A DNA stretch of 64,000 nt from Pirellulales bacterium (GTDB lineage: Bacteria > Planctomycetota > Planctomycetia > Pirellulales > JADZDJ01): contig CAVTYH010000009.1 in the NCBI GenBank assembly GCA_963738835.1, forward strand, positions 121,533-185,532, in the 5' to 3' direction. The position numbers and the translations under genes were made by a program. Each line of letters begins with the position of its first letter. The stretch's first letter is position 1. Shown here piece after piece: positions 1,603 to 62,196 of this stretch. The notes beneath the pieces were generated by a model. The model had not been told where the DNA came from. It did not search any database and saw only the letters and a list, made by a program, of their open reading frames with translations.

Positions 1603-1675
1603 TACCCCCACGGGGAGTCGAACCCCGGTTTTCGGACTGAGAACCCGACGTCCTGGGCCACTAGACGATGGGGGC
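1603..1675 (-). tRNA. tRNA-Glu (anticodon CUC)
   Basis: The minus strand reads GCCCCCATCGTCTAGTGGCCCAGGACGTCGGGTTCTCAGTCCGAAAACCGGGGTTCGACTCCCCGTGGGGGTA. It folds as a cloverleaf with a D arm typical of tRNA-Glu, anticodon loop TT-CTC-AG and T loop GGTTCGACTCC. It has a G1-U72 wobble and no encoded CCA. Confidence 0.85.
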
Positions 1676-14846: not shown

Positions 14847-14873
14847 TGATCGCTTTTGGATCTCCAGCAATTT

Positions 14874-14901
14874 GTCATTGAGATTTGGTCATTCGTCATT
14901 A
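14874..14901 (+). repeat. Heptad-periodic GTCA leader before the xdhC start
   Basis: TTTGTCA TTGAGAT TTGGTCA TTCGTCA TTAATCG, ending 7 nt before the ATG at 14908. Confidence 0.5.
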
Positions 14902-18496: not shown

Positions 18497-19141
18497 TCAA
18501 TCCATTGCCGGCCGATCTGGCAGGATAGTTTCCGACGCTTGGGGCGAAAGAAGCGTCTGCCAGCAACGTTCAACCTGTGACTGAATATAGCTTACATCCC
18601 GCGAATTATCCAGCACGAAATTGGCACAGCGCCGTTTCTCATCGACCGGCTCCTGAGAAGCCTCCCGGCGCTCGAATTCCTGGGCGTTCCAGCCTCGTTT
18701 TAAGGCCCGAGCCAGCCGCTGGTCGAGCGGAGAATCGACGAATGCTAGCGAATCGCAAAACTGATCCCAACCGGCTTTTAACATGACCGGCGCATCCAGA
18801 ACGACCAGCCGCCTGCCTTCCCGAGCCATTTGCTCCGCCTCGGCTTTGAGCCGCTCGCGAATTTCTGGATGCGTAATGCGTTCCAATTCGGTTAGTTCGC
18901 GCGGGCCACTGGGGGGAGGTGCGAAAACAATCTCGGCCAGAGCTTGGCGATCGACTTCACCGTCGGGACCGATCACGTCTTTGCCCCAACGTCCGCCAAT
19001 GGCCGCCCGCACCGCCGGCAACCGCAGCACTTCGTGCCCAGCCCGATCGGCATCGAGCACCCCAGCACCGAGCTGGCGAAACAACTCCGCCACCGTGCTT
19101 TTGCCACTTGCGACGCCACCGAGCAGACCGAGAATTTTCAT
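18497..19141 (-). CDS. coaE: Dephospho-CoA kinase
   Basis: MKILGLLGGVASGKSTVA P-loop, DADRAGHEVL, about 200 aa. Confidence 0.85.
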   Translation of the reverse strand: MKILGLLGGVASGKSTVAELFRQLGAGVLDADRAGHEVLRLPAVRAAIGGRWGKDVIGPDGEVDRQALAEIVFAPPPSGPRELTELERITHPEIRERLKAEAEQMAREGRRLVVLDAPVMLKAGWDQFCDSLAFVDSPLDQRLARALKRGWNAQEFERREASQEPVDEKRRCANFVLDNSRDVSYIQSQVERCWQTLLSPQASETILPDRPAMD

Positions 19142-19142
19142 T

Positions 19143-19177
19143 GTCAGGAGTCAGAGATCAGAGGTCAGGAGTCAATT
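19143..19177 (-). repeat. Five 7-nt-periodic TGA-containing units abutting the coaE start
   Basis: The coding strand reads AATTGAC TCCTGAC CTCTGAT CTCTGAC TCCTGAC A-ATG. TCA on the plus strand falls at 19144, 19151, 19158, 19165 and 19172, exactly 7 nt apart. Confidence 0.7.
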
Positions 19178-19224: not shown

Positions 19225-22200
19225 TCACTCGCACTCGGCCCAATTGCGGCCAGTTTTCAGGTCGACTTTCAGCGGTATCGCCAATGGCATGACGCTGGAC
19301 ATTTCGGACTGCACCAGCGATTTCATTTCGTCAAGTTCGTTAGGCGGAGTCTCAAAAATCAGTTCGTCGTGGATTTGCAGTAGCATCTTGCTGCGAAGTT
19401 TTTCACGACGCAGACGGCGGTAAATGTTTAGCATCGCCAGTTTCATAAGATCGGCGGCGCTGCCTTGGATGACCGTGTTAATCGCCGTTCGCTCCGGCAA
19501 AGTGCGCTGGCGAGCGGCCGGATCGCCAAGCTTAGTTGGGGTGATGTCGCGGACGCCTTGAATGGCACGGCGGCGACCAAGAATTGTGGTCACATAGCCC
19601 TGTCGGCGGCATTCGATCAAAATCTCGCGCAAGAACTTTTCCACGCCGGGATAACCATTGAAGTAAGCGTCGATGAAGCGGGCTGCCTCCTCAACTTCGA
19701 TGTCGAGCATCTTCGAGAGTCCAAACGGACTTTGGCCATAGATCACACCAAAGTTCACCGCTTTGGCAACCCGCCGCATGGAAGAATCCACACTCTCCAG
19801 CGGCACGCTAAACACCTGGCTCGCAACGCGGGCGTGAATATCTTCATCACGCTCAAAAGCAGCCCGCAACGTTTCGTCGTCGGAAATGTGCGCCAATACC
19901 CGTAGCTCGATCTGAGAGTAATCGGCAGCCAAGAGCCACCAATCGGGTTCACCAGGCAAGAATGTGGACCGGATTTCGCGCCCTTCTTCGGTACGGATCG
20001 GGATGTTCTGCAAATTGGGGTCGCTGGAACTCAAACGGCCGGTTGCAGCCACGACCTGATTGAACGACGCATGCACGCGGCCGGTTTGTGGATGAACCAT
20101 TTGCGGTAGCGCATCGACATAGGTGCCTTTCAATTTGGAGTATTGGCGATGGGCAATGATTTTCGCGGGCAACGGATGATTTCGGGCAAGCTCTTCTAAC
20201 ACCTCCGCATCGGTGCTGGGGCCAGTTTTGGTTTTCTTGAGCACCGGCAACTTTTGCTCGACAAAGAGGACTTCTTGCAGTTGTTTTGGCGAAGCGATGT
20301 TGAACTCGCGGTCTGCAAGCTGGAAGATCTCCACTTCCAACGCCGCCAGCCGCTCGCCAAATTGCTGGCTTAATTCGCTGAGACGATTCACATCGACCCG
20401 GATGCCATTAAATTCCAGCTCGACCAGCACATCGATCAGCGGCACTTCCAAATCGTTGAACAGCGGTTCGAGTTGGCACTCATGCAATCGCTGCGCCAAC
20501 AGGGGAACCAACCGCAAGGCGACGTCGGCATCTTCGGCGGCGTAATGTGTGATTTGTGCAACCGGCACCTGGTCCATGCGTTTCTGATTTTTGCCACTGC
20601 CGATCAGTGCGCCGATTTTCGTTGTCGTATGGTTGAGATAGCGGCTGGCAAGCTCGTCGAGATTATGATTTCGCTCACCAGCATCGAGCAAATAGCTGCC
20701 GATGATGGTGTCGAACTGCACCCCGGCCAATTCTATGCCCGCGGAACGAAGCACGATCATGTCGTATTTCAAGTTTTGCCCGACTTTTCCGATCGCCGGG
20801 TTTTCCAGCACGGGCCGCAATGCTTCCAGCGTTGATTTCGGATCAAGTTGCGGTTCTCCTTCCGGAGCTCGAACCGGAACGTAGTAAGCCTCGCCTTCTT
20901 TCCAGGCGAACGAGTAGCCGACAATTTCCGCCCAGCGTGGATACAGGCTTGTCGTTTCGGTATCGATCGAGATTTGTTTCTGGCGGCTCATCTCATCGAT
21001 AAGCCAATGCAACCGCTCCGGCGTGGCGATTGCTTCGTACCGGTGCGCGAAAGCGGGCAAATCGGCTTTTGTCCGATCGCGCATCAGGTTGGTGAGGGTG
21101 TGAAATCCGAGTTCGGCGAATAAATCGGCGGCTCCGGCGGGATCGAACCCCCCTGCCCTACCCTGCTCCCAATTGATTGGCACGGGCACTTCGGAATCGA
21201 GCCGCGCAAGTTGGCGGCTGACGAAAATCTGCTCACGAGTCGCCAGTAAATTCTCTTTTCGCTTGCCCTTGGGCAGCTCATCTACTTTTGCCAGCAGATT
21301 CTCTAGCGTGCCGAACTTTGCCAACCACTCGCCAGCCACTTTCGGACCTACCAGCGGTACGCCGGGAATGTTGTCGACGGAATCACCAACCAGCGTCTGA
21401 AAATCGACAACCTGATTGGGGCGAATTCCCCATTCGGCTTGCAGTGCCGCGGCATCGAAAAATGCATTCTTGCGGATGTTGTAGACTTTCACTTGGTCAG
21501 AAATCAGTTGTCGGCAATCTTTATCGCCGGTCACAACCACACATTCGCCACCTGCTTGCTCGGTTAATCGAGCGATGGTCGCCAAAATATCGTCGGCTTC
21601 GTAGGCCTCGCATTCCAAAATCGGGATCCCCAGTGTGGCCAACATCCGACGAATCGTGCCAATTTGCGGCCGCAACTCGTCAGGCATTTCGGTGCGGTGC
21701 TCTTTGTATGCCGCAAACAGCTCATGTCGAAACGTCGGACCCGACATGTCGAACGCGGCAAACAAATAATCGGGCTTTTTCTGATCGAGAATGGTCATCA
21801 TGTCGCGAGTGAACCCGAACACGGCACCGGTCGGCTCGCCGCGCGGACTGGTCATTTCTGGCAGCGCATGGAACACCTGAAAGATAAGCGAATGCGAATC
21901 GATAACCCAAACCGTCTTGCCCTTGAGATCCGGCACGGGCGTGGCTTCGACCGGTTCGATTGGCGTCTCGGCCGTGTCGGTGCCCATTTCCGCGGTTGGC
22001 GAGGCCGCTGGAAAATCGCACTCCGTGGACGACCGCGGATTGGCAACCTCATCCTGCAGATCGTTCATGGCTGGCGCATCGTTTTCCCAACCGGGCAATT
22101 GTGTCTGCTTGGGATCCAATTTTTTTTTGGTGCGCGCCATTTCCGCTTTCGCTGTTGAGATGTCGGGACGTGGAATATTTGGTACGTAAATCGTTGCTGG

Positions 22201-22254
22201 CTCTGAGATACAACGATTTAGTTCACTGATGGATCGTAGGGCCGAGGCTTCCAA
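19225..22254 (-). CDS. polA: DNA polymerase I
   Basis: 5'-3' exonuclease (LFAAFD, EADD), 3'-5' exonuclease (SIDTETTS) and polymerase motifs (DYSQIELR, KAVNFGVIYG, QIHDEL). The start may be the internal MARTKKK at 22140. Confidence 0.9.
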   Translation of the reverse strand: MEASALRSISELNRCISEPATIYVPNIPRPDISTAKAEMARTKKKLDPKQTQLPGWENDAPAMNDLQDEVANPRSSTECDFPAASPTAEMGTDTAETPIEPVEATPVPDLKGKTVWVIDSHSLIFQVFHALPEMTSPRGEPTGAVFGFTRDMMTILDQKKPDYLFAAFDMSGPTFRHELFAAYKEHRTEMPDELRPQIGTIRRMLATLGIPILECEAYEADDILATIARLTEQAGGECVVVTGDKDCRQLISDQVKVYNIRKNAFFDAAALQAEWGIRPNQVVDFQTLVGDSVDNIPGVPLVGPKVAGEWLAKFGTLENLLAKVDELPKGKRKENLLATREQIFVSRQLARLDSEVPVPINWEQGRAGGFDPAGAADLFAELGFHTLTNLMRDRTKADLPAFAHRYEAIATPERLHWLIDEMSRQKQISIDTETTSLYPRWAEIVGYSFAWKEGEAYYVPVRAPEGEPQLDPKSTLEALRPVLENPAIGKVGQNLKYDMIVLRSAGIELAGVQFDTIIGSYLLDAGERNHNLDELASRYLNHTTTKIGALIGSGKNQKRMDQVPVAQITHYAAEDADVALRLVPLLAQRLHECQLEPLFNDLEVPLIDVLVELEFNGIRVDVNRLSELSQQFGERLAALEVEIFQLADREFNIASPKQLQEVLFVEQKLPVLKKTKTGPSTDAEVLEELARNHPLPAKIIAHRQYSKLKGTYVDALPQMVHPQTGRVHASFNQVVAATGRLSSSDPNLQNIPIRTEEGREIRSTFLPGEPDWWLLAADYSQIELRVLAHISDDETLRAAFERDEDIHARVASQVFSVPLESVDSSMRRVAKAVNFGVIYGQSPFGLSKMLDIEVEEAARFIDAYFNGYPGVEKFLREILIECRRQGYVTTILGRRRAIQGVRDITPTKLGDPAARQRTLPERTAINTVIQGSAADLMKLAMLNIYRRLRREKLRSKMLLQIHDELIFETPPNELDEMKSLVQSEMSSVMPLAIPLKVDLKTGRNWAECE

Positions 22255-29500: not shown

Positions 29501-29919
29501 TTACGCTGCCGCCGCCTGTCGGACTTGCTCGCGGATGTGGTGTTGGATGGCTGACAAACCGCGCATGCGTACCATGCCGAGAGCTTCCAGCAATCCCAGT
29601 CGTTTGAGCAAATCGGGCGGAGTGGCAAGCACTTCCTCTGGCGTCGCGCCGCTGAAGGCATCGACAAGGATTCCGACAAATCCTTTCACCGTGGGGGCTT
29701 CAGGTGCGACGTCGGCGTGAACCTGAACGCGGCCGTCGTTCACGCTGACCCAGATGAAAACCGGCGTCTGACATTCGGCAATACGGTGCAAACCAGCATC
29801 GCGTTCGGCACGAAAACGTTCGGGTAGCGGCGGCAGATCTTCGGCGAACTCGAGGAGAAGCTCCAGCCGTTCCGCGGGTCGAGGTCGGCAAATTCGGTGA
29901 CGATGTCGTCAAGTTTCAA
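29501..29919 (-). CDS. sufE: SufE-like sulfur acceptor protein (apparent frameshift ~29872)
   Basis: ORF 29501-29791 has [13 protein letters not shown]...VKGFVGIL...LS..R..GL. The N-terminus [16 protein letters not shown](E)[26 protein letters not shown] needs one extra base. The TTG start overlaps the sseA ORF stop (TTGA). Confidence 0.75.
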
Positions 29920-30890
29920 CCGTGCACCTCGTTGACTTCGACCGCTCCAGCGTCCCGGTACCTTAGCTCTCTTTCAACTTCAACTGCTGAACGTGATGGC
30001 TTGTTCCGGTTTTGTCGCTTGCACGGCCGACCCGTCCGGTTCGGCGCCCGTACGATCGGCACGCCAACCAGATTGCCCCATTCGGTCCAAGAGCCGTCGT
30101 AATTCTTGACGTTGTTGAATCCCAGCAGATATTTCAACACGAACCAGGTATGGCTGCTGCGTTCGCCAATGCGGCAATAGGCGATGGTCCGACCGCGGCG
30201 TGAGAGGTGGTTTTCTTTGCAGTACAGCTTTTCAAGTTCTTTCGCCGACTTGAACGTGCCGTCTTCCTGCACTGCTTTCGACCAGGGAATGCTGACGGCT
30301 CCGGGAATGTGACCGGCTCGCAGAGCGCCCTCCTGCGGATAATCGGGCATGTGAATTGTCTCGCCGGTGTACTCGCCAGGGGACCGTACATCGACCAGCG
30401 GTTTGCCGGCTCGGCTGTGCTTTAGCACTTCCTCACGAAAGGCGCGGATCGCGAGATCGGGCTCCTTTGCCGTGTAATCGGCCCGCGGATACGTCGGTTC
30501 CGGATCGCGCGACCACTCGCGGCCATCTAACTCCCAGCGCATGCGGCCCCCGTCCATGACGAGGCACTTCTCATGACCATAAAGTTTGAAGACCCAGAAC
30601 GCATAGCACGCCCACCAGTTGTTTTTATCGCCGTAGAAAACAACCGTGGTGTTGTTGCCAATCCCCTTGGCGGCACATAACTCGGCGAAGTGGTCTTTGT
30701 TGACATAATCGCGAACGGTCGTATCTTGCAAATCGGTGTGCCAGTCGATCTTCACTGCTCCGGGGATGTGACCCTGGGTGTAAAGCAGCACGTCTTCGTC
30801 CGATTCGACGATGCGAACTTCGGGGTCGTTCAAGTGATCGGCTACCCATTGGGTTGTGACCAAAACTTCGGGATGTGCATATTCAGCCAT
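29916..30890 (-). CDS. sseA: Tandem-rhodanese sulfurtransferase (thiosulfate/3-mercaptopyruvate type)
   Basis: Two rhodanese domains with active-site loop [11 protein letters not shown] and GSWTEWGN. The ~45-aa basic C-terminal tail is atypical. An alternative frame gives ...TGAEPDGS... ending at 29980, so another indel near ~30040 is possible. Confidence 0.8.
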
Positions 30891-31292
30891 ATCGAATTTG
30901 TCTTTCGGTAGTGGAGTAGTGGAATTGTTGGTGTGGGCGGAATCGCTCGATTTTCTAGCCGATTATTCGTTAGACATCCTATCTGGGGTCAACTGTCCAG
31001 TGCCGCCTTATTTACCCCGACATGGTCGAATGGTGGGCGAGCAGCCGACCTGAACGGCAAGTCTTCTGAGGAATTTCAGTCAAATTCGGCCAGTCGTAAG
31101 TGCCAATCTGCCGCCGTGTTCAGCCTACAGCAGTGGAATATGGGGTGCAATTGGCGCATTCCGGAGAACCTTCGTCAATCCGCTGGCAATCTTAACCCCT
31201 CGGCAATAAGAGCTTGATTCGTTCTGTGGGGTGTGAGAAACTATTGGAAACCTGCCACACAGGTCTTGCCCATAGCGTGTATTACTCGCAGC

Positions 31293-33851: not shown

Positions 33852-33877
33852 TGTCCGACACAAACGTCCGACACAAA
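33852..33877 (+). repeat. Perfect 13-nt tandem duplication abutting the DUF1501 start codon
   Basis: GTCCGACACAAAC GTCCGACACAAAC followed directly by the ATG at 33879. Confidence 0.7.
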
Positions 33878-33878
33878 C

Positions 33879-35355
33879 ATGGATCAATGCACTCCACACC
33901 CCGAACTCCGAATTCCGCACTTCGAAACTGCTCAATCGCGCCGCGACTTCCTGACTCGTGCCGGCGGCGGATTCGGCGCCCTGGCGCTCTGGTCGTTGCT
34001 GGCTCGTGATGCCAAAGCGACGGAGTTGGCCGCGAAGGGACCGATTTCGCTTACTAATCCTCTGGCCGCAAAAGCGCCGCCAATGCCGGCCAAAGCCAAG
34101 TCGGTCATCTGGTGCTTTCTCGACGGCGGGCCGAGCCATCTCGACCTTTTCGATCCCAAACCGACGCTGACGAAACTTGCTGGCCAACCGCTGCCCGACA
34201 GCTTTCCTCGCCCCCTGACCGCCATGGGCAAGACGGCTTTTACGCCGCTGATGGCCAGCCAGCGGAAATTCAAACAGTACGGGCAATCGGGAATTTGGGT
34301 CAGCGATTGGTATCCCGAAATCGCCAGTTGTGTGGACGACATGGCCGTGGTTCGTTCGTGCTGGGCCGATGGTCTGACGCACGTGGGCAGTGTCTGTGAG
34401 ATGAACACGGGCAGCATTTTGATGGGACGACCATGCGTCGGCGCGTGGGTGCTCTACGGATTGGGCACTGCCTGCGACAACCTGCCCGGCTACGTCGTGC
34501 TGACCGACTATCAACAAGAACCGCCCGGCGGCAATCGCCAGTGGAGCACCGGCTTCATGCCCTCGACCTATCAGGGCACGAAATTCCGCGACGGCAAAAC
34601 GCCGATTCTGCACGTCGCCCCGCAAGACGGTTACTCCGACAAGCGGCAGCGCAGCAAAATCGATTTCATCCAGCAATTGAATCGCCAGCATCTGGAAGGA
34701 CGTGAGGGCGACAGCAATCTTGAAGCGCGAATCGCCTCGTACGAGTTGGCGTATCGAATGCAGGCCGCCGCGCCGGAAGCCGTGGACATCACGACGGAAA
34801 CCGCCGAAACACAGTCGCTGTACGGAATCGACGCCCAAGAAACCGCCGCCAATGGCCGCAACTGTTTGATGGCGCGCCGGCTGGTCAGAACGCGGCGTGC
34901 GCTTCGTCCAGCTTTACATGGGCTCGGGCAGCAAGTGGGATGCCCATACCGATGTGGAAGGCAATCACAGCCAGTACTGCAAAGAAACCGACAAGCCGGT
35001 CGCCGGGCTGCTGAAAGATTTGAAGCGTCGTGGTCTTTTGGACAGCACACTGGTGATCTGGGGCGGCGAATTCGGCCGCACCCCAATGAGCGAAAGCGGC
35101 ACCGGCCGCGACCACAATCCGTACGGCTTCACCATGTGGATGGCCGGCGGCGGCATCAAGCCGGGCACAGTGTACGGCGCGACCGACGAAATCGGCCTGT
35201 ACGCTGTGGAAAACAAAGCCCACATCCACGATGTCCACGCGACGCTTCTGGCGCTCTTGGGCCTCGACCACGAACAGCTGACCTTCCAGCACAACGGCCG
35301 CGACGAGCGCCTGACGATCACCAGCGGCACGGTGATCAAAGACATCATCGCCTGA
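33879..35355 (+). CDS. DUF1501 (sulfatase-fold-like) protein with Tat signal (apparent frameshift ~34887)
   Basis: Twin-arginine signal [18 protein letters not shown]. Motifs [16 protein letters not shown] and RRLV(E)[15 protein letters not shown]. The C-terminal ORF 34897-35355 has [17 protein letters not shown] and [12 protein letters not shown]. Confidence 0.85.
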
Positions 35356-35359
35356 TTCT

Positions 35360-36965
35360 TCACGCGACCGTCGGCGTCAGATTTTTCGCCGGGCTCGACT
35401 GCCGGCGTCGGTGGATCAAGGTATTAGAGCGCCGCACCAATAGGACAGGAATAAGTCCAACCGCGGTGATCAGTGCTAGGTCGTATAGCACATCTTCAAG
35501 CGCAAAAGCGCGTGCATTGGCGTGAGTCCACTTGGCCGCGAGCGCTTGAGACTGCTTGACACTTTCATCAAGCCCACTTCCTTGGCTCGTGAAATGCTGC
35601 CGGGTTGCCGAATAAGTTTCGCTGACAATCGGCCGATTGTATCTGACATTCTGCCGCAGCGTGTCGAACTGGGCATCGGTCAATTGGGTCCACAAAGTCA
35701 TCAGCGTCACGGTGGCAAGATACGCCGGCAGCGACCGCATGATGTTGAATACGCCGGCCAGCATCATCGTTTCATCGATTGGCAGCGCTTCGAAGATGGT
35801 CATCAGTGCCGGGCCAATCACCAGCCCTGCGCCGATTCCCCAAGTGCCCAGCGCGCTGGCGATCCAGAATTTGCTGGTGTAAAGATCGACGGTCGCCAAT
35901 TGCCACGTGACAATCGCCATGACGCCCAATCCGACCGCCATGCGGAGTTTGCGATTGCCACGGGTTCCCACGCTAGTGGCCAGCAGAATCGCCAGCGTCA
36001 TCGTTCCGACAGCCGGCGAAACCGCCAGTGCCGCTTGCCACCACTGATAGCCGCGCAGATTGATCATGTACACCGAGAGCAGCGAGAGCAGCGCGTACAA
36101 ATTGATGCTGAAAATCACCTTGATCATTAGTCCCAGGGTCGTGTTCCGTCGACCGAAGACGTGCAAATTGATCAATGGCTTGCGCCATCAGCCCCCAGCA
36201 AACGAACGCGCCACAGGCAGCCAGAAATCCAACCAACCAAATGACGAAATGCCGCGACGTCGCCCAGCCCCAATACTGACCCAAATCCAATACGACGTTC
36301 AGCGTGATGATGCTTCCTGCCAACAGTGCCAGACCCACCAAATCCAGCTTGATCCAGGATTGCTTCTCCGGTCTCGGCTCGCGGGGCAGCAGCATCGAAG
36401 CCATTGCAAAGACGACCGTGCCCAGCGGGAAATCGATAAAAAAAATCCACCGCCACGATAACCACGCCGTCAGCATTCCACCGATCAAGGTGCCTGCCAC
36501 GGCCGGCACGTACACGGCCATGCCATACAGCGCCATGGCCGTTTTGCGCCCTCGCGGAAACGCACACCAGATCAGCACCATGCCGACGGAAATCAGCAGG
36601 CCGTTGCCCAACCCCTCGAACCACCGCAGCGGCGTCATCCACACAATTTCGGTCACCAAGCCGCAAGCAGCACCAGCCAGCGTGAACAACAGAACGCCTA
36701 GCAAGTAGGCCCCGCGCAATCCCAAGCGACTGCTGCAGAAACCGGTCAGCGCCATGCCCAGGGCCGATCCCAACAGATAGCTGCCGCTGATCCAGTGAAT
36801 GCGGTAATGGTCCGTATCGAGCGCATCAACAAAATCGGCGCTGGGCACATTCAGCATCGTGGAATGGGCCAGCGCCAGCGCCACGCCCGGCAGTACCGCC
36901 GCCATAATGGACCACCGTTTGCGGAGCGTCCACCACAAGCGATCGGCCAAAGTCACCCGATTCAC
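35360..36965 (-). CDS. MFS drug-efflux transporter, EmrB/QacA-like 14-TMS type (apparent frameshift ~36180)
   Basis: ORFs 35973-36965 and 35360-36175 join as ...FVCWGLMAQ-PLINLHVFGRRNTT.... Multiple TM segments. The start overlaps the HlyD gene end. Confidence 0.75.
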
Positions 36966-44378: not shown

Positions 44379-45308
44379 TCACGTCACCAACCCCTTCGTC
44401 ACCAGCATAAACACGTCTTCCAGCGTCGGGTCTTTGTCGTTGAAGCTTCGCATTTTCACGCCCTGGCGAGTCAGTTGATCCAGGAGCTGGGCCACACGCT
44501 GGTCGTCGGCTTCCAATTCCACGGTCACGCTGTGGTCTTCAATTTGCACCCCGCGGGTTTCGGGCAGGCTGCGGATGATCGAGAGGCCAGCGTCCATGCC
44601 GCCGTCCATGAATTTGATTTCGATCAGCCGGTTGCGATGGATGCGACGGTAGACTTCGGCAATCGGCCCGTGCATCAGCAGTTGGCCGCGTTCGATGATG
44701 CCGACCGACGTGCAGCAATCGGCCAGCTCGCTGAGGATGTGGCTGGAAATCAGAATCGTCTTGCCCATGCGGCGCAGCTCTTTTAAGAGCGCTTTGAATT
44801 CCATGCGCGCCCGCGGATCGAGGCCGCTGGAAGGCTCGTCGAGAATGAGCACCGGCGGATCGTGGACCAGAGTTTTCGCCAGGCACAGGCGTTGCTTCAT
44901 GCCTCGTGACAGACTGTTGACGAAATCGTCGCGCTTGTGCGTCAGGTCCAACAGTTCCAGCACGTCGCCGATCACTTGCTTACGCCGGCTGCGCGGAATC
45001 TGATAGGCCACGGCAAAGAAATCAAGAAACTCCCAGACTTTCATGCCGTCGTACACGCCGAAGTTATCGGGCATGTAGCCGACCACACGGCGCACACCCA
45101 ACGGATCGCGCGTCACACTATGTCCGGCCACCACGCCGTCGCCGCGCGTGGCTTTCAGCAGTGTGGCCAAAAAGCGAATGGTCGTGCTTTTGCCGGCGCC
45201 ATTGGGACCGATGAAGCCGAACAGCTCTCCCTTGCTGATGTGCAAGGTAAGGCCTTCGACCGCGGTAAAATCGCCGTATTGCTTACCGAAGTTGATAAGA
45301 TCGATCAT
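44379..45308 (-). CDS. ABC transporter ATP-binding protein (ABC-2/DrrA-like)
   Basis: Walker A GPNGAGKST, signature LSRGMKQRL, Walker B LILDEPSSGLD. No permease gene is adjacent. Confidence 0.85.
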   Translation of the reverse strand: MIDLINFGKQYGDFTAVEGLTLHISKGELFGFIGPNGAGKSTTIRFLATLLKATRGDGVVAGHSVTRDPLGVRRVVGYMPDNFGVYDGMKVWEFLDFFAVAYQIPRSRRKQVIGDVLELLDLTHKRDDFVNSLSRGMKQRLCLAKTLVHDPPVLILDEPSSGLDPRARMEFKALLKELRRMGKTILISSHILSELADCCTSVGIIERGQLLMHGPIAEVYRRIHRNRLIEIKFMDGGMDAGLSIIRSLPETRGVQIEDHSVTVELEADDQRVAQLLDQLTRQGVKMRSFNDKDPTLEDVFMLVTKGLVT

Positions 45309-45314
45309 AGAGCG

Positions 45315-45348
45315 GTCGTCGGTTGTCAGTTGTCAACGGTCAGTAGTG
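45315..45348 (-). repeat. Heptad-periodic TGA leader abutting the ABC ATPase start
   Basis: The coding strand reads CTACTGA CCGTTGA CAACTGA CAACCGA CGACCGCTCT-ATG. Three TGAs 7 nt apart fall in all three frames relative to the ATG. Confidence 0.65.
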
Positions 45349-45372: not shown

Positions 45373-45394
45373 GTAGCGGCGGGGCTTGCCCCGC
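45373..45394 (+). repeat. GTAG-hairpin (REP-like) element
   Basis: GTGTAGCG-GCGGGGC-TT-GCCCCGC-G between the 855-aa gene stop and the ABC ATPase start. Confidence 0.5.
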
Positions 45395-50887: not shown

Positions 50888-52465
50888 TCAACCGACTCGC
50901 TGCTCGGTAATCTCAATCGCCTTCAGCAAGCCGCGGGCTTTGTTGAGGGTTTCTTGCCATTCAAGCTGTGGTTGGCTGTCGGCAACGATGCCGGCGCCGG
51001 CTTGAAGATAAGCGGTTTTTGCGGTCGTCTTTGCCGGATAACCCTCGGCGGAAGCCGGGGGCTGCGGAATCACAATGGTCCGTAGCGCGATGCACGTATC
51101 CATGTTGCCGCTGTAATCGACATAGCCGACGGCCCCGGCGTACGGCCCGCGGCGGTGCGGTTCCACTTCGTCGATAATTTCCATCGCCCGCACTTTGGGC
51201 GCGCCAGAAACGGTGCCGGCCGGCAAGCAGGCCCGCAAGGCATCGAAAGCGTCTTTCCCATCGGCGAGCATGCCAGTGACGTTGCTGGTGATGTGCATCA
51301 CGTGGCTGTAACGTTCGATGGTCATCACATCGGTCAGTTCGACCGAGCCATAGCGAGCCACGCGGCCCACATCGTTGCGGCCTAAATCGACCAGCATGAC
51401 GTGCTCGGCCCGTTCCTTGGGATCGGCCAACAGTTCTTTGGCCAAACGGTTGTCTTCTTCATCGGTTTGCCCTCGACGGCGTGTGCCGGCCAGCGGGCGT
51501 ACGGTCACTTTACGATCGACGACGCGGACCATCACTTCCGGCGAGCTGCCCACGAGCGTGACGCTGGGTGTTCGCAGGTAAAACATGAACGGGCTGGGAT
51601 TCACGACTCGCAGAGTTCGGTAAATTTCGAACGGATGCGACTTGATCGCCAGTTCCAGCCGCTGACTGATGACGACCTGAAAAATATCGCCCGCTTGAAT
51701 GTACTCGACACACTTATCGACCGCTTTCTCAAACCCCGACTGCGTGAAGTTCGATTTGTAGGTGATTGTTGAATCGCCTCCGGGGCGGATATCGACTGGC
51801 GTCAAATCGGCGGTTGGCGTCGAGAGTTTTGCCACAAGTTCGTCCACGCGACGGCAGGCATCGTCGTACGATGCTTTCAAATCGCCGTTGTCCACACGCG
51901 CCATCGCCACAACGACTATGGTTTTGGTGATGTTGTCGAACACCACCATGCGATCGTAAAAAGCGAACGACAGGTCGGGCAGTTGGCGATCATCGGGGGG
52001 TGCATTCGGCAACAGTTCGCTGTAGCGGACCACGTCGTAGCCCGCGTAGCCGATGGCTCCGCTCACGAATGGCGGCAGTTCGGGCAGCCGCACAGCTCGC
52101 AAGGCATCGACACGGCGGCGGAGTTCTTCGATGGGATCGGGCGATTCGAATTCTTCAATGTTCGCGATGGGTTGGTCGGCGCGACCCACGGCTGCCGCCG
52201 CAAGCTGTTGGGAAGTTTTCGTGCGAACGACCACGCGATGGCCCCAGGCCTCGATTTCTTGAAATGGCTCGGCCGTGAGAAAACTGTAACGCCCCACTTT
52301 TTCGCCACCGACCACGCTTTCGAACAAACACGCCGACGAGCCGGCATCTAGTTTGTGAAACGCGGAGACCGGGGTGAGCGAATCGCCAATCAATCGCCGA
52401 TACACCGGCACCAAATGCACACCCGAGGCCAGCCGCGAGAACGTTGCGAAGTCAGGATAGTGCAT
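50888..52465 (-). CDS. trpE: Anthranilate synthase component I
   Basis: 525 aa. [52 protein letters not shown] and GAPK.RAMEII. Confidence 0.9.
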
Positions 52466-52468
52466 TGA

Positions 52469-52503
52469 GAGTAGTGGTCGGTAGTCCGTTGTCAGTGGTC
52501 CGT
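52469..52503 (-). repeat. Degenerate heptad (NNNGACN) leader abutting the trpE start
   Basis: The plus strand reads GAGTAGT GGTCGGT AGTCCGT TGTCAGT GGTCCGT. The coding strand reads ACGGACC ACTGACA ACGGACT ACCGACC ACTACTC TCA-ATG. Confidence 0.55.
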
Positions 52504-52711: not shown

Positions 52712-52739
52712 TTGACACCCCCTAGCCCATTGCTAGAAT
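52712..52739 (+). promoter_or_regulatory. Near-consensus sigma70-type promoter upstream of mcsA
   Basis: TTGACA (52712-17), 16-nt spacer, TAGAAT (52734-39), about 130 nt before the mcsA ATG. Confidence 0.45.
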
Positions 52740-52868
52740 CCCAACGGGATCAAGCGCGAAACGCATAACATTCCCCAAGTGCCCGCCCAAACTTGTCCTG
52801 TCGGACCAAACGAGCGCTGGTTGATCTCATACCCGGTTCAAAACACCTCCGCCGTTTCTCATGCTCCT

Positions 52869-60715: not shown

Positions 60716-62173
60716 ATGGCCGCCGATCAAAAAAATCCACTGCCTGTCGAAGCTGAAGCCATTTCGCCGGCCATGCGACGCCGGCTGCAAGAATGCTTCA
60801 ACCGCGGTGTGCAGAACACGCAAAGCGGCAATTTCGATTACGCCACCGAATTGCTTACTCAATGTGTGACCGGCGACCCGGGCAACTTGGTTTACACCCA
60901 GGGTTTCCTGGGTAATCTGCAGCGCAAGTATAACAATAACAAGAAGGGCAGCACACTGGCGAGCATCCGTTCCAGCGGCTCCAAGATGAGCATGATGAAC
61001 GCCAGCCGAAAGAAAGATTGGCCAGCGCTGATCAAGACGGGTTTGGAAGTGCTTAAAGTAAATCCGTGGGATGTCTCCACGTTGCTGCAAATCGCCCATG
61101 CGTGTGCGGAATTAGGCTATGTCGAGTGCCGACTGGTGTATCTCAAAGGCGCTCAGGACGCCGATCCAAAAAGTGTAGAAGTCCAGCGCAAGTGCGCCAA
61201 AGCATTGGAAAGCATTGGCGAATACAACCAGGCGATTTCCTGTTGGACTCGGGTCGATAGTCTCACGAAGGGAGGCAATGAAGAGGCGAAACGAGAAATC
61301 GCCAAGCTGCAAGTCGATCTCACGATGAACGCCGGCCCTGTGAAGCACGACGAAGAAGACGGCCAGGAATCCGAGGGGGGCAGCGCCGGAGCCAAAACTT
61401 CATCGTCTGGTCACGTGACCGTAGGACCGGCCAAAAAGTCGCCGACGCAGGAACTCGAAGTCCAGATTGCCGAGAACCCGGGTGAAGTTCTGGGCTATGC
61501 TCAGCTGGCCGAAAGCCACGCCAAAGTCGAGAAATGGAGTGAAGCGGAGAATGTGCTCAATCGAGGGCTGGAAGCCACGGGCGGCGACTTGCGGCTCCGC
61601 GAACAGTTGGAAGATATCCAACTTCGGCGAGCCAAACAGCACTCGCTCATTGCCGATAAGCGAGCCGCGGAATCGAAAACGCCCGAAGCCAACGAACAAG
61701 CCCAAAAAATGCGACGTGATCTGAGCCGGTTGGAGCTTGATATCTTCCGCAAACGGGTCGATCGATATCCAACCAACACGCACTGGAAGTATGAACTGGG
61801 CATCCGTCTGAAGATGACTGGCAATTTCAATGAAGCTATCAAAATGCTCCAGGACGCGCGGCAAGATCCGAAGCATCGCGGAACTGTAATGCTCGAGATC
61901 GGCGAGTGCTTCCAGCAAATCAAGCAATACAGCCTGGCGATGCAGCATTACAAAAAGGCAATTGAGGAAATTCCCGAACGCGACGAAGAACTGCGAAAAA
62001 AAGCCCTCTATCGGGCCGGCGTTTTGGCGATGGGTTTGAACGAACTGGAAGCGGCGGAGCAATACTTTTCGCAGTTGGCCGAGCGTGATTTTGGCTACCG
62101 CGATGTGTCCGACCGGCTAGACAAAATCGTTTCGCTCCGCGATAAAGGTGGTTCGGCTGAACCTGATTCCTGA
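60716..62173 (+). CDS. TPR-repeat protein, function unknown
   Basis: 485 aa with several TPR-like helical pairs (e.g. YSLAMQHYKKAIEEIP, LEAAEQYFSQLAE). Confidence 0.6.
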   Translation: MAADQKNPLPVEAEAISPAMRRRLQECFNRGVQNTQSGNFDYATELLTQCVTGDPGNLVYTQGFLGNLQRKYNNNKKGSTLASIRSSGSKMSMMNASRKKDWPALIKTGLEVLKVNPWDVSTLLQIAHACAELGYVECRLVYLKGAQDADPKSVEVQRKCAKALESIGEYNQAISCWTRVDSLTKGGNEEAKREIAKLQVDLTMNAGPVKHDEEDGQESEGGSAGAKTSSSGHVTVGPAKKSPTQELEVQIAENPGEVLGYAQLAESHAKVEKWSEAENVLNRGLEATGGDLRLREQLEDIQLRRAKQHSLIADKRAAESKTPEANEQAQKMRRDLSRLELDIFRKRVDRYPTNTHWKYELGIRLKMTGNFNEAIKMLQDARQDPKHRGTVMLEIGECFQQIKQYSLAMQHYKKAIEEIPERDEELRKKALYRAGVLAMGLNELEAAEQYFSQLAERDFGYRDVSDRLDKIVSLRDKGGSAEPDS

Positions 62174-62196
62174 ACCCTGAACCCTGAACCCTGCTC
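62163..62196 (+). repeat. Tandem heptamer CTGAACC run bridging the TPR stop codon and the rpsT start
   Basis: CTGATTC CTGAACC CTGAACC CTGAACC CTGCTC-ATG. CTGA falls at 62163, 62170, 62177 and 62184. The TPR stop TGA (62171-73) is one of the units. Confidence 0.75.

Follow-up and report, generated by a model that had tools for sequence, protein, structure and literature searches.

What stands in front of the start codon in a bacterium that makes little use of Shine-Dalgarno (SD) pairing? The question is raised by the leader of coaE in a 64,000-nt stretch from the genome of a soil planctomycete of the order Pirellulales, phylum Planctomycetota (contig CAVTYH010000009.1, positions 121,533 to 185,532; the whole stretch is hereafter called the window), where a tandem array of heptanucleotides runs up to the ATG:

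19143–19177, minus strand: five 7-nt units (coding strand AATTGAC TCCTGAC CTCTGAT CTCTGAC TCCTGAC), 1 nt upstream of the coaE ATG

The answer that we tentatively prefer is that this and similar arrays are slippage-generated repeats which may be kept as structure-free, SD-independent leaders for ribosome loading. The matter bears on start-codon finding by ribosomes in bacteria that barely use SD pairing, such as Planctomycetes, Bacteroidetes and Cyanobacteria.

On the plus strand the coaE array reads GTCAGGA GTCAGAG ATCAGAG GTCAGGA GTCAATT, and on the coding strand its last unit is followed by a single A and then by the ATG at 19139–19141. The array contains five TGA triplets, all in exact 7-nt phase; for a TGA frequency of 0.0146 in the window, the number of five-unit in-phase TGA runs expected by chance on both strands is 8.5e-5. 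The sequence is exactly as given in the first-pass annotation of the window. The ATG opens an open reading frame (ORF) of 214 amino acids identified with Pfam as CoaE, dephospho-CoA kinase, and the start is credible because the profile (positions 2–177 matched) aligns from residue 3. Of the 83 nt between polA and coaE, the array takes the 35 nt nearest the start. It was called independently by Tandem Repeats Finder, as was a second array in front of rpsT described below. The longest ORF of the adjacent polA (19225–22254, minus strand) starts from a TTG and has 1009 amino acids, which is unusually long; its first ~100 residues look like low-complexity sequence, and the true polA start is probably further downstream.

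A sliding autocorrelation of the window over periods 4–12 gave peaks of at least 21/28 at period 7 only. The comparison set consisted of about 1.4 Mb of fetched loci, related and unrelated, comprising 39 Planctomycete and 41 non-Planctomycete polA loci, the closest relative among them having a PolA identity of 88%. Taken from a collection of species-representative genomes, the polA loci assign the window to a Pirellulales lineage without cultured members. Period 7 was the sole period enriched in the intergenic DNA of both groups, with 17 arrays in 68 kb of Planctomycete spacers and 16 in 59 kb from other phyla, compared with 0–6 for periods 5–12. Arrays were counted as start-abutting when they ended at most 12 nt from an ATG opening an ORF of at least 80 amino acids, and later loci were added to the set for this count. 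By this definition 22 of the 59 period-7 arrays (37%) abut a start, against 27/195 (14%) for arrays of other periods (Fisher p = 2.4e-4). For the remaining periods not divisible by three (5, 8, 10 and 11) the count is 3/31 (p = 0.006). The strand read toward the ATG has less G than C in 16 of the 22 start-abutting arrays (sign test p = 0.05), and in the window's own spacers the arrays lie at the start-proximal end beyond what uniform placement predicts (combined p = 0.016). Some enrichment in Planctomycete spacers was also seen for period-8 arrays (6 at thresholds 19–20; loci L001–L039), and since a period-8 repeat of TTACTCAC is found in the leader of the ABC-transporter ATPase gene of a relative (L148), period 7 is to be regarded as favoured, not exclusive.

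Four further arrays are present in the window:

45311–45345, minus strand: TACTGAC CGTTGAC AACTGAC AACCGAC GACCGCT before the ABC-transporter ATPase gene, ATG 45306–45308
62157–62196, plus strand: CTGAAC CTGATTC CTGAACC CTGAACC CTGAACC CTGCTC before rpsT (ribosomal protein S20), directly joined (gap 0) to ATG 62197
52466–52503, minus strand: degenerate array AACGGAC CACTGAC AACGGAC TACCGAC CACTACT, then CTCA and the ATG of trpE, 4 nt upstream of ATG 52463–52465
14871–14901, plus strand: degenerate array TTTGTCA TTGAGAT TTGGTCA TTCGTCA before xdhC, 6 nt upstream of ATG 14908, in the opposite orientation

The distances from array to ATG are therefore 1 nt for coaE, 9 for the ABC ATPase gene, 0 for rpsT, 4 for trpE and 6 for xdhC. 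The ABC array consists on the plus strand of the units GTCAGTA, GTCAACG, GTCAGTT, GTCGGTT and AGCGGTC, with three TGA in phase, and the stop codon of the gene upstream of it is 104 nt from the ABC ATG. The same architecture as at coaE had been ascribed to the ABC and rpsT arrays; both arrays are indeed present and the rpsT array, with four TGA in phase, abuts its ATG, but the ABC array ends 9 nt away when counted from its last clear unit and is not abutting. The upstream TPR gene terminates at one of the rpsT triplets (TGA 62171–62173), at a distance of 23 nt from the rpsT ATG, and the whole 23-nt TPR-rpsT spacer is filled by the array. In the trpE array GAC recurs in phase four times and TGA occurs once, in line with the degenerate array already noted there; its spacer of 313 nt is divergent, trpE being the first gene after it. 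The xdhC array was likewise found degenerate and inverted in orientation as previously annotated, and its unit belongs to a TTCGTCA family that is found upstream of starts in L016, L144 and L145 as well. The density amounts to three strong and two degenerate arrays in the 64-kb window, and to four arrays in the 21-kb locus L144.

No inverted-repeat partner that would indicate a hairpin, REP (repetitive extragenic palindrome) or MITE (miniature inverted-repeat transposable element) origin was found within 600 nt of the window arrays. Scans of the four main spacers for promoters and terminators gave no site overlapping an array, and an Rfam scan of the whole window gave no family over the arrays, its single match being a tRNA at 1603–1675 (minus strand). 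The only strong sigma-70-like site in those spacers, a near-consensus extended sigma-70-type promoter (TTGACA, 16-nt spacer, TG, TAGAAT) at 52712–52739 on the plus strand, precedes the divergent gene at 52779, which encodes a UVR-domain (McsA-like) protein; the corresponding UVR gene of L145 has an ATP:guanido phosphotransferase (McsB-like) among its neighbours. Between a DUF4350-like gene and the ABC array there is a strong GC hairpin, with the coding-strand sequence GCGGGGC-AA-GCCCCGC (45378–45393). It is without a U-tract, and it is kept in L144 and, with changes, in L148.

Folding of the region from −40 to +20 gave −1.1 kcal/mol for rpsT, −3.5 for trpE and −3.6 for the ABC ATPase gene, which are the three least structured of all window genes (median −12.6); coaE and xdhC are also above the median energy. 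The five array leaders differed in this energy from the 23 other ATG genes (Mann-Whitney p = 0.0024). When folded with 130–150 nt of context the arrays were mostly unpaired in the centroid structures, the z-scores (0.56, −0.63 and 1.15) being non-significant. A Rho utilisation (rut) site is a C-rich, G-poor, unstructured RNA of about 60–80 nt. The arrays show a C over G skew and little predicted structure, over a length of only 30–40 nt.

No GGAG, GAGG or AGGA motif was found in the array leaders. The sense strand of the arrays is pyrimidine-rich, and the CUCCU that it contains resembles the anti-SD sequence, not the SD. Among the window and its closest relatives SD-like motifs were present upstream of 7/39 genes, roughly the chance rate by hand estimate, while in Desulfobacterota and Chloroflexi loci from the same search they preceded 43 of 82 genes. 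The low rate in the lineage of the window agrees with the survey of Nakagawa 2017 (PMC5397173), in which SD genes are few in Planctomycetes, Bacteroidetes, Cyanobacteria and Chlorobi and in which genes without SD fold more weakly around the start. The arrays are non-random, lie where an SD sequence would be expected and point toward the start codon, as the first-pass annotation had proposed.

Orthologous leaders were compared for the fate of the arrays. The TPR-rpsT arrangement is kept in six metagenomic loci, five from close relatives and the more distant L097, and in all of them repeat arrays abut the rpsT ATG or lie just upstream of it. CTGAACC arrays abut this ATG in L081 and L082 (82–83% S20 identity) and in L097 (59%), with differing copy number, which was the outcome of the comparison of copy numbers at orthologous loci that had been suggested beforehand. 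The rpsT leaders of L083–L085 (81–88% S20 identity) carry (T)AGACACC-type arrays instead, and an inverted partner is present upstream of the rpsT array in L084, L085 and L097. Directly behind the rpsT stop of L097 (5271–5316) there is also an array of GGTCAGN, in which the CTGAC core is antisense. Look-ups of the exact CoaE and S20 proteins, aimed at copy-number polymorphism within the species, gave no match on record; the copy-number differences at rpsT are those between species-level relatives.

At the other genes the units are exchanged or lost. The trpE leaders of L145 and L146 carry a TTCGTTA/TTCGTCA array of the same family as the xdhC array of the window and the arrays in L016 and L144. 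The ABC leaders of L150 and L151 contain degenerate CCACTGN heptads, and in the leader of L144 a shared ATTGCCA anchor is followed by no more than proto-units. The xdhC leader of L004 is pyrimidine-rich, with two copies of TTTCCTGG. In more distant Planctomycetes the coaE spacer contains other units, namely GGGGATT...CCCCAAT in L020, AGTCCAA/GGACTTT in L029, CAAATCA/TGATTTG in L025 and GATTGTC/CAATCGA in L054. What recurs at these leaders is the state of being a short-period, G-poor repeat, with rpsT as the most persistent case; the unit sequence itself is exchanged. Inverted array pairs occur in ten loci of the relatives (L001, L020, L025, L029, L045, L054, L084, L085, L097 and L144). In L144, in addition, a TTGTCNT array lies between ffh and rpsP (19303–19350) and an inverted GCAAAAT/TTTTGCA pair between rpsP and trmD, abutting the trmD ATG (19844–19917).

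The explanation favoured here would account for these features as follows. The arrays would be heptanucleotide simple sequence repeats (SSRs) that arise and change their copy number by replication slippage, and they would be retained and repeatedly regenerated in the last 25–40 nt of mRNA leaders. Their persistence there is attributed to the transcribed strand being G-poor (one G per unit or none) and hence unable to fold. The unfolded array, if transcribed, may serve as a structure-free, SD-independent landing site for the 30S subunit in a lineage essentially without SD, and in this way may raise or set translation initiation. It could be held open or recognised by single-strand binders of the oligonucleotide-binding (OB) fold, with S1 or cold-shock-domain proteins as candidates. 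According to literature cited by MacGregor 2015 (PMC4679880), CspB of Bacillus subtilis binds with one protein per heptamer, and the same candidate binders were put forward in that paper for the TAACTGA repeats. A repeated site for a binding protein, one of the two functions suggested for the array in the first-pass annotation, is a live hypothesis in the form of a site on single-stranded RNA. The three-frame TGA, on which the other suggestion was built, would be a by-product of the unit of this genome (NNCTGAC/CCTGAAC). At most it might bring the secondary benefit that ribosomes arriving from upstream are stopped in any frame, the TPR ORF ending in the rpsT array.

Several observations weigh against this explanation. 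None of the three closest relatives (L001, L003 and L004) has the coaE array, relatives of 90–97% protein identity lack the AACTGAC array of the ABC ATPase gene as such, and the xdhC array is missing at the ortholog in L004, which is 86% identical. The individual arrays are therefore dispensable and young, which would fit a neutral repeat equally well. In L029, L097, L084, L085 and L144 an array together with its inverted copy would sequester the leader in a long hairpin, the opposite of an unstructured state. The low structure follows from the G-poor composition and is therefore not independent evidence. Gene starts were taken from a crude longest-ORF caller, and for the source genome itself the data cover the 64-kb window.

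A broader version of the favoured explanation is that G-poor 7-nt arrays are a substitute for the SD sequence spanning phyla, each heptad being the footprint of one OB-fold (cold-shock or S1 domain) and the array nucleating a protein-coated landing pad. We consider this extension unlikely. If true, selection on the unfolded state and not on the sequence would explain why arrays reappear with different units at rpsT, trpE, coaE and the ABC ATPase gene. It would also explain why such repeats have been described mainly from SD-poor Cyanobacteria and Bacteroidetes and from Beggiatoaceae rich in SD-less genes, to which Planctomycetota are now added.

The main rival of slippage repeats kept as loading leaders is that the arrays are neutral SSRs, an explanation that we regard as possible and on balance doubtful. 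Heptamers would simply be the most slippage-prone unit and would accumulate in spacers; as 7 is not divisible by 3, they would be excluded from coding DNA, and near starts only the G-poor orientation would be tolerated because others would add structure or false starts, the arrays having no function of their own. Mrazek 2007, in which, as summarised in later papers, heptamers are the commonest long SSR class in many bacteria and slippage is proposed, speaks for a neutral origin. So do the fast turnover, with the coaE, ABC and xdhC arrays missing in relatives at 79–97% protein identity, the diversity of units between genes and between genomes, the variable copy number among rpsT orthologs and the period-7 enrichment in unrelated phyla. 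What neutrality explains poorly is the position of the arrays. They are start-proximal even in long spacers, as at trpE with 4 nt to the ATG in 313 nt, and they abut an ATG more than twice as often as arrays of other periods (37% vs 14%). The remaining periods not divisible by three behave differently (3/31 abutting, p = 0.006), and rpsT leader arrays are found in 6/6 related loci despite replacement of the unit.

A lineage-specific regulon was also considered, in which a sequence-specific RNA- or single-stranded DNA-binding protein would recognise CTGA(C/A), with one protomer per heptad, and would co-regulate the array genes, as MacGregor proposed for TAACTGA. The sense-strand CTGA(C/A) core is common to three independent arrays in 64 kb (coaE, ABC and rpsT), and it is found again in L011, L081 and L082 and on both sides of rpsT in L097; cores containing TGA are known from other phyla too (TAACTGA, and Nostoc GAC(C/T)AAT with TGAC in another register). 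The downstream genes, however, are functionally unrelated (coaE, ABC ATPase, S20 and trpE), the units differ beyond the 4-nt core, the xdhC array and the trpE array of L145 belong to a family of opposite orientation, and orthologous leaders swap units. CTGA as the dominant heptad core of Planctomycetes was rejected, since CCCCAAT-type units dominate the sampled loci; arrays of CCCCAAT abut ATGs in the Planctomycete loci L005, L020 and L033. In view of these differences a common regulon appears quite improbable.

Still less probable is the other function suggested in the first-pass annotation, a three-frame stop acting as a translational insulator or as a termination-reinitiation platform, in which the in-phase TGAs would halt ribosomes next to the ATG for re-initiation. 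The strong arrays of the window all have sense TGA in three frames (sense/antisense stops 5/0, 3/1 and 5/1), and one TGA of the rpsT array, 23 nt from the ATG, does terminate the TPR ORF. Across the 22 start-abutting arrays, however, sense stops were not commoner than antisense stops (10 vs 7, Wilcoxon p = 0.15), and stop-free units occupy the same leaders: CCCCAAT and GGACTTT at coaE, AGACACC at rpsT and TTCGTCA at trpE, and CTATCCG units, at an equivalent leader position, also lack a stop codon. On these grounds three-frame TGA was rejected as a selected feature of general validity. Moreover, in these units the TGA orientation is the G-poor orientation and the two cannot be separated. The upstream stops lie 83 nt (polA-coaE) and 104 nt (ABC) from the ATG, and no upstream ribosomes are expected at trpE, the first gene after a divergent spacer, so that termination-reinitiation is not a mechanism shared by the arrays.

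The least probable of the alternatives, and by a small degree only, is that each array is what remains of a hairpin-type element, either processed by RNase III or REP/MITE-like, after loss of the partner arm: inverted array pairs are numerous in relatives (ten loci, including L029, L097 and L144) and cleavage of a heptamer-repeat hairpin by RNase III is documented for the hmw (ATCTTTC)n repeat (PMC12721329), but no inverted partner was found within 600 nt of the window arrays, and these are mostly unpaired when folded in context, with non-significant z-scores. Binding of duplex DNA by a helix-phased regulator we infer to be unlikely, because a 7-bp spacing turns successive sites by about 240 degrees.

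Further short repeats were noted at two more genes of the window. The DUF1501 ORF (33879–35525) has in its 5′ end, before the twin-arginine SRRDFL motif, a period-7 stretch of CACTCCA CACCCCG AACTCCG AATTCCG CACTTCG (33889–33926, plus strand). Its 78% identical homolog in L001 (653–757 of that locus) has the same coding heptads and in addition a complementary array just upstream of the ATG, so that a hairpin there would enclose the start codon. Where L001 has this upstream arm the window has a different repeat. An exact 13-nt direct repeat, two copies of GTCCGACACAAAC at 33853–33878 (plus strand), abuts the DUF1501 ATG at 33879. Two exact copies of the 8-nt TCCACTAC (coding strand minus, 30908–30923) are found 17 nt upstream of a rhodanese-domain gene (29916–30890), and this leader is G-poor and the fourth least structured in the window.

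If the arrays set translation efficiency, as the favoured explanation would have it, they would constitute a compact, tunable and sequence-agnostic initiation element and a handle for experiments and synthetic biology in bacteria with few SD sequences. Neutral arrays would still be of use as markers of leader regions that are prone to slippage and intolerant of structure. In either case start-abutting heptamer arrays, which have been reported a few times before, are now extended to Planctomycetota. The comparison adds that period 7 alone is enriched in spacers (periods 5–12, several phyla), that about a third of the arrays reach a start codon, the G-poor strand being the sense strand, and that at some leaders, rpsT above all, the repeat state outlasts changes of unit.

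The first-pass annotation took the element to be undescribed, which is not the case: the same layout has been published for TAACTGA repeats, for the Nostoc heptamer and for GGGGAYT/GGGAATC repeats. A close resemblance is shown by the TAACTGA heptamers of marine Beggiatoaceae, present also in some Cyanobacteria and Bacteroidetes, of which MacGregor 2015 (PMC4679880) described 169 sets of 2–6 copies. These sets are mostly forward and without a ribosome-binding site, and in the most frequent class 1 nt separates the array from the start codon (PMC4679880). The window arrays share with them the 7-nt unit, the 2–6 tandem copies (4–6 units here), sometimes split by related units, the forward orientation with an end within a few nt of the start, and the lack of a ribosome-binding site. 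Further common features are the overlap of some arrays with an upstream ORF's end (here at rpsT), the location before ribosomal-protein genes, the predicted lack of structure, and a unit containing CTGA that gives stops in three frames. In contrast, the units of the window (TCCTGAC/CTCTGAC, AACTGAC and CCTGAAC) vary between genes and have only the CTGA core in common, whereas the BOGUAY genome uses essentially one heptamer, and the phylum is a different one. Since the unit sequence both differs and varies, the window arrays are not members of the TAACTGA set.

In Nostoc PCC 7120 eight copies of GAC(C/T)AAT overlap the recO start codon, and TTTTGAA repeats are present as well (Pradhan 2022 preprint). 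These cyanobacterial heptamers (the short tandemly repeated repetitive (STRR) sequences of Calothrix and Nostoc, GAC(C/T)AAT and TTTTGAA) resemble the window arrays in being contiguous and situated within 30–100 nt of start codons, which they sometimes overlap, in the non-canonical or absent SD, and in the suspected translational role. Read in another register, GAC(C/T)AAT contains TGAC, as the window units do. They differ in the phylum, in the sequence and greater uniformity of their units, in the copy number, often at least 8, and in that some act at promoters. Mazel et al. are said to have described in 1990 the STRR units CCCCAGT, TTGGTCA and CAACAGT as long tandem arrays in heterocystous cyanobacteria. 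The host considered here is a Pirellulales planctomycete, and TTGGTCA is present once only, in the xdhC array.

The GGGAATC repeats of Xanthomonas and GGGGA(C/T)T of Nostoc are likewise intergenic heptamer SSRs, and at conserved positions close relatives differ in the length and the sequence of the repeat. Rehm 2015 (PMC4692102) found such heptamers upstream of ORFs at distances of mostly 0–50 bp, with the G-rich strand as the non-coding strand, which makes the mRNA there C-rich and G-poor. Those repeats were read as quadruplex-forming DNA or RNA, while the units of the window cannot form G-quadruplexes or i-motifs. In Haemophilus influenzae the (ATCTTTC)n repeat of the hmw1A 5′ untranslated region is phase-variable, its copy number tunes expression, and its hairpin is processed by RNase III (Rapun-Araiz 2025, PMC12721329). 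It is also a pyrimidine-rich heptamer SSR, and the hairpins of array and inverted arm in the relatives L029, L097 and L144 are of the same design. The hmw system, however, needs at least 10 repeats, a G-rich partner arm and RNase III and belongs to a contingency locus of a host-adapted pathogen, whereas the window arrays have 4–6 units, no partner arm and a place before housekeeping genes.

Most generally, the arrays can be compared with the long SSRs (5–11-nt units) of Mrazek et al. 2007, in which, as later papers summarise it, heptamers are the commonest class in many bacteria and polymerase slippage is proposed as the cause. They agree with this class as heptanucleotide tandem repeats longer than composition predicts; the class is purely descriptive and implies no positional tie to start codons. 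The arrays before coaE, the ABC ATPase gene, rpsT, trpE and xdhC are an instance of a known, poorly understood class of repeats, to which a new phylum and new units are added here.

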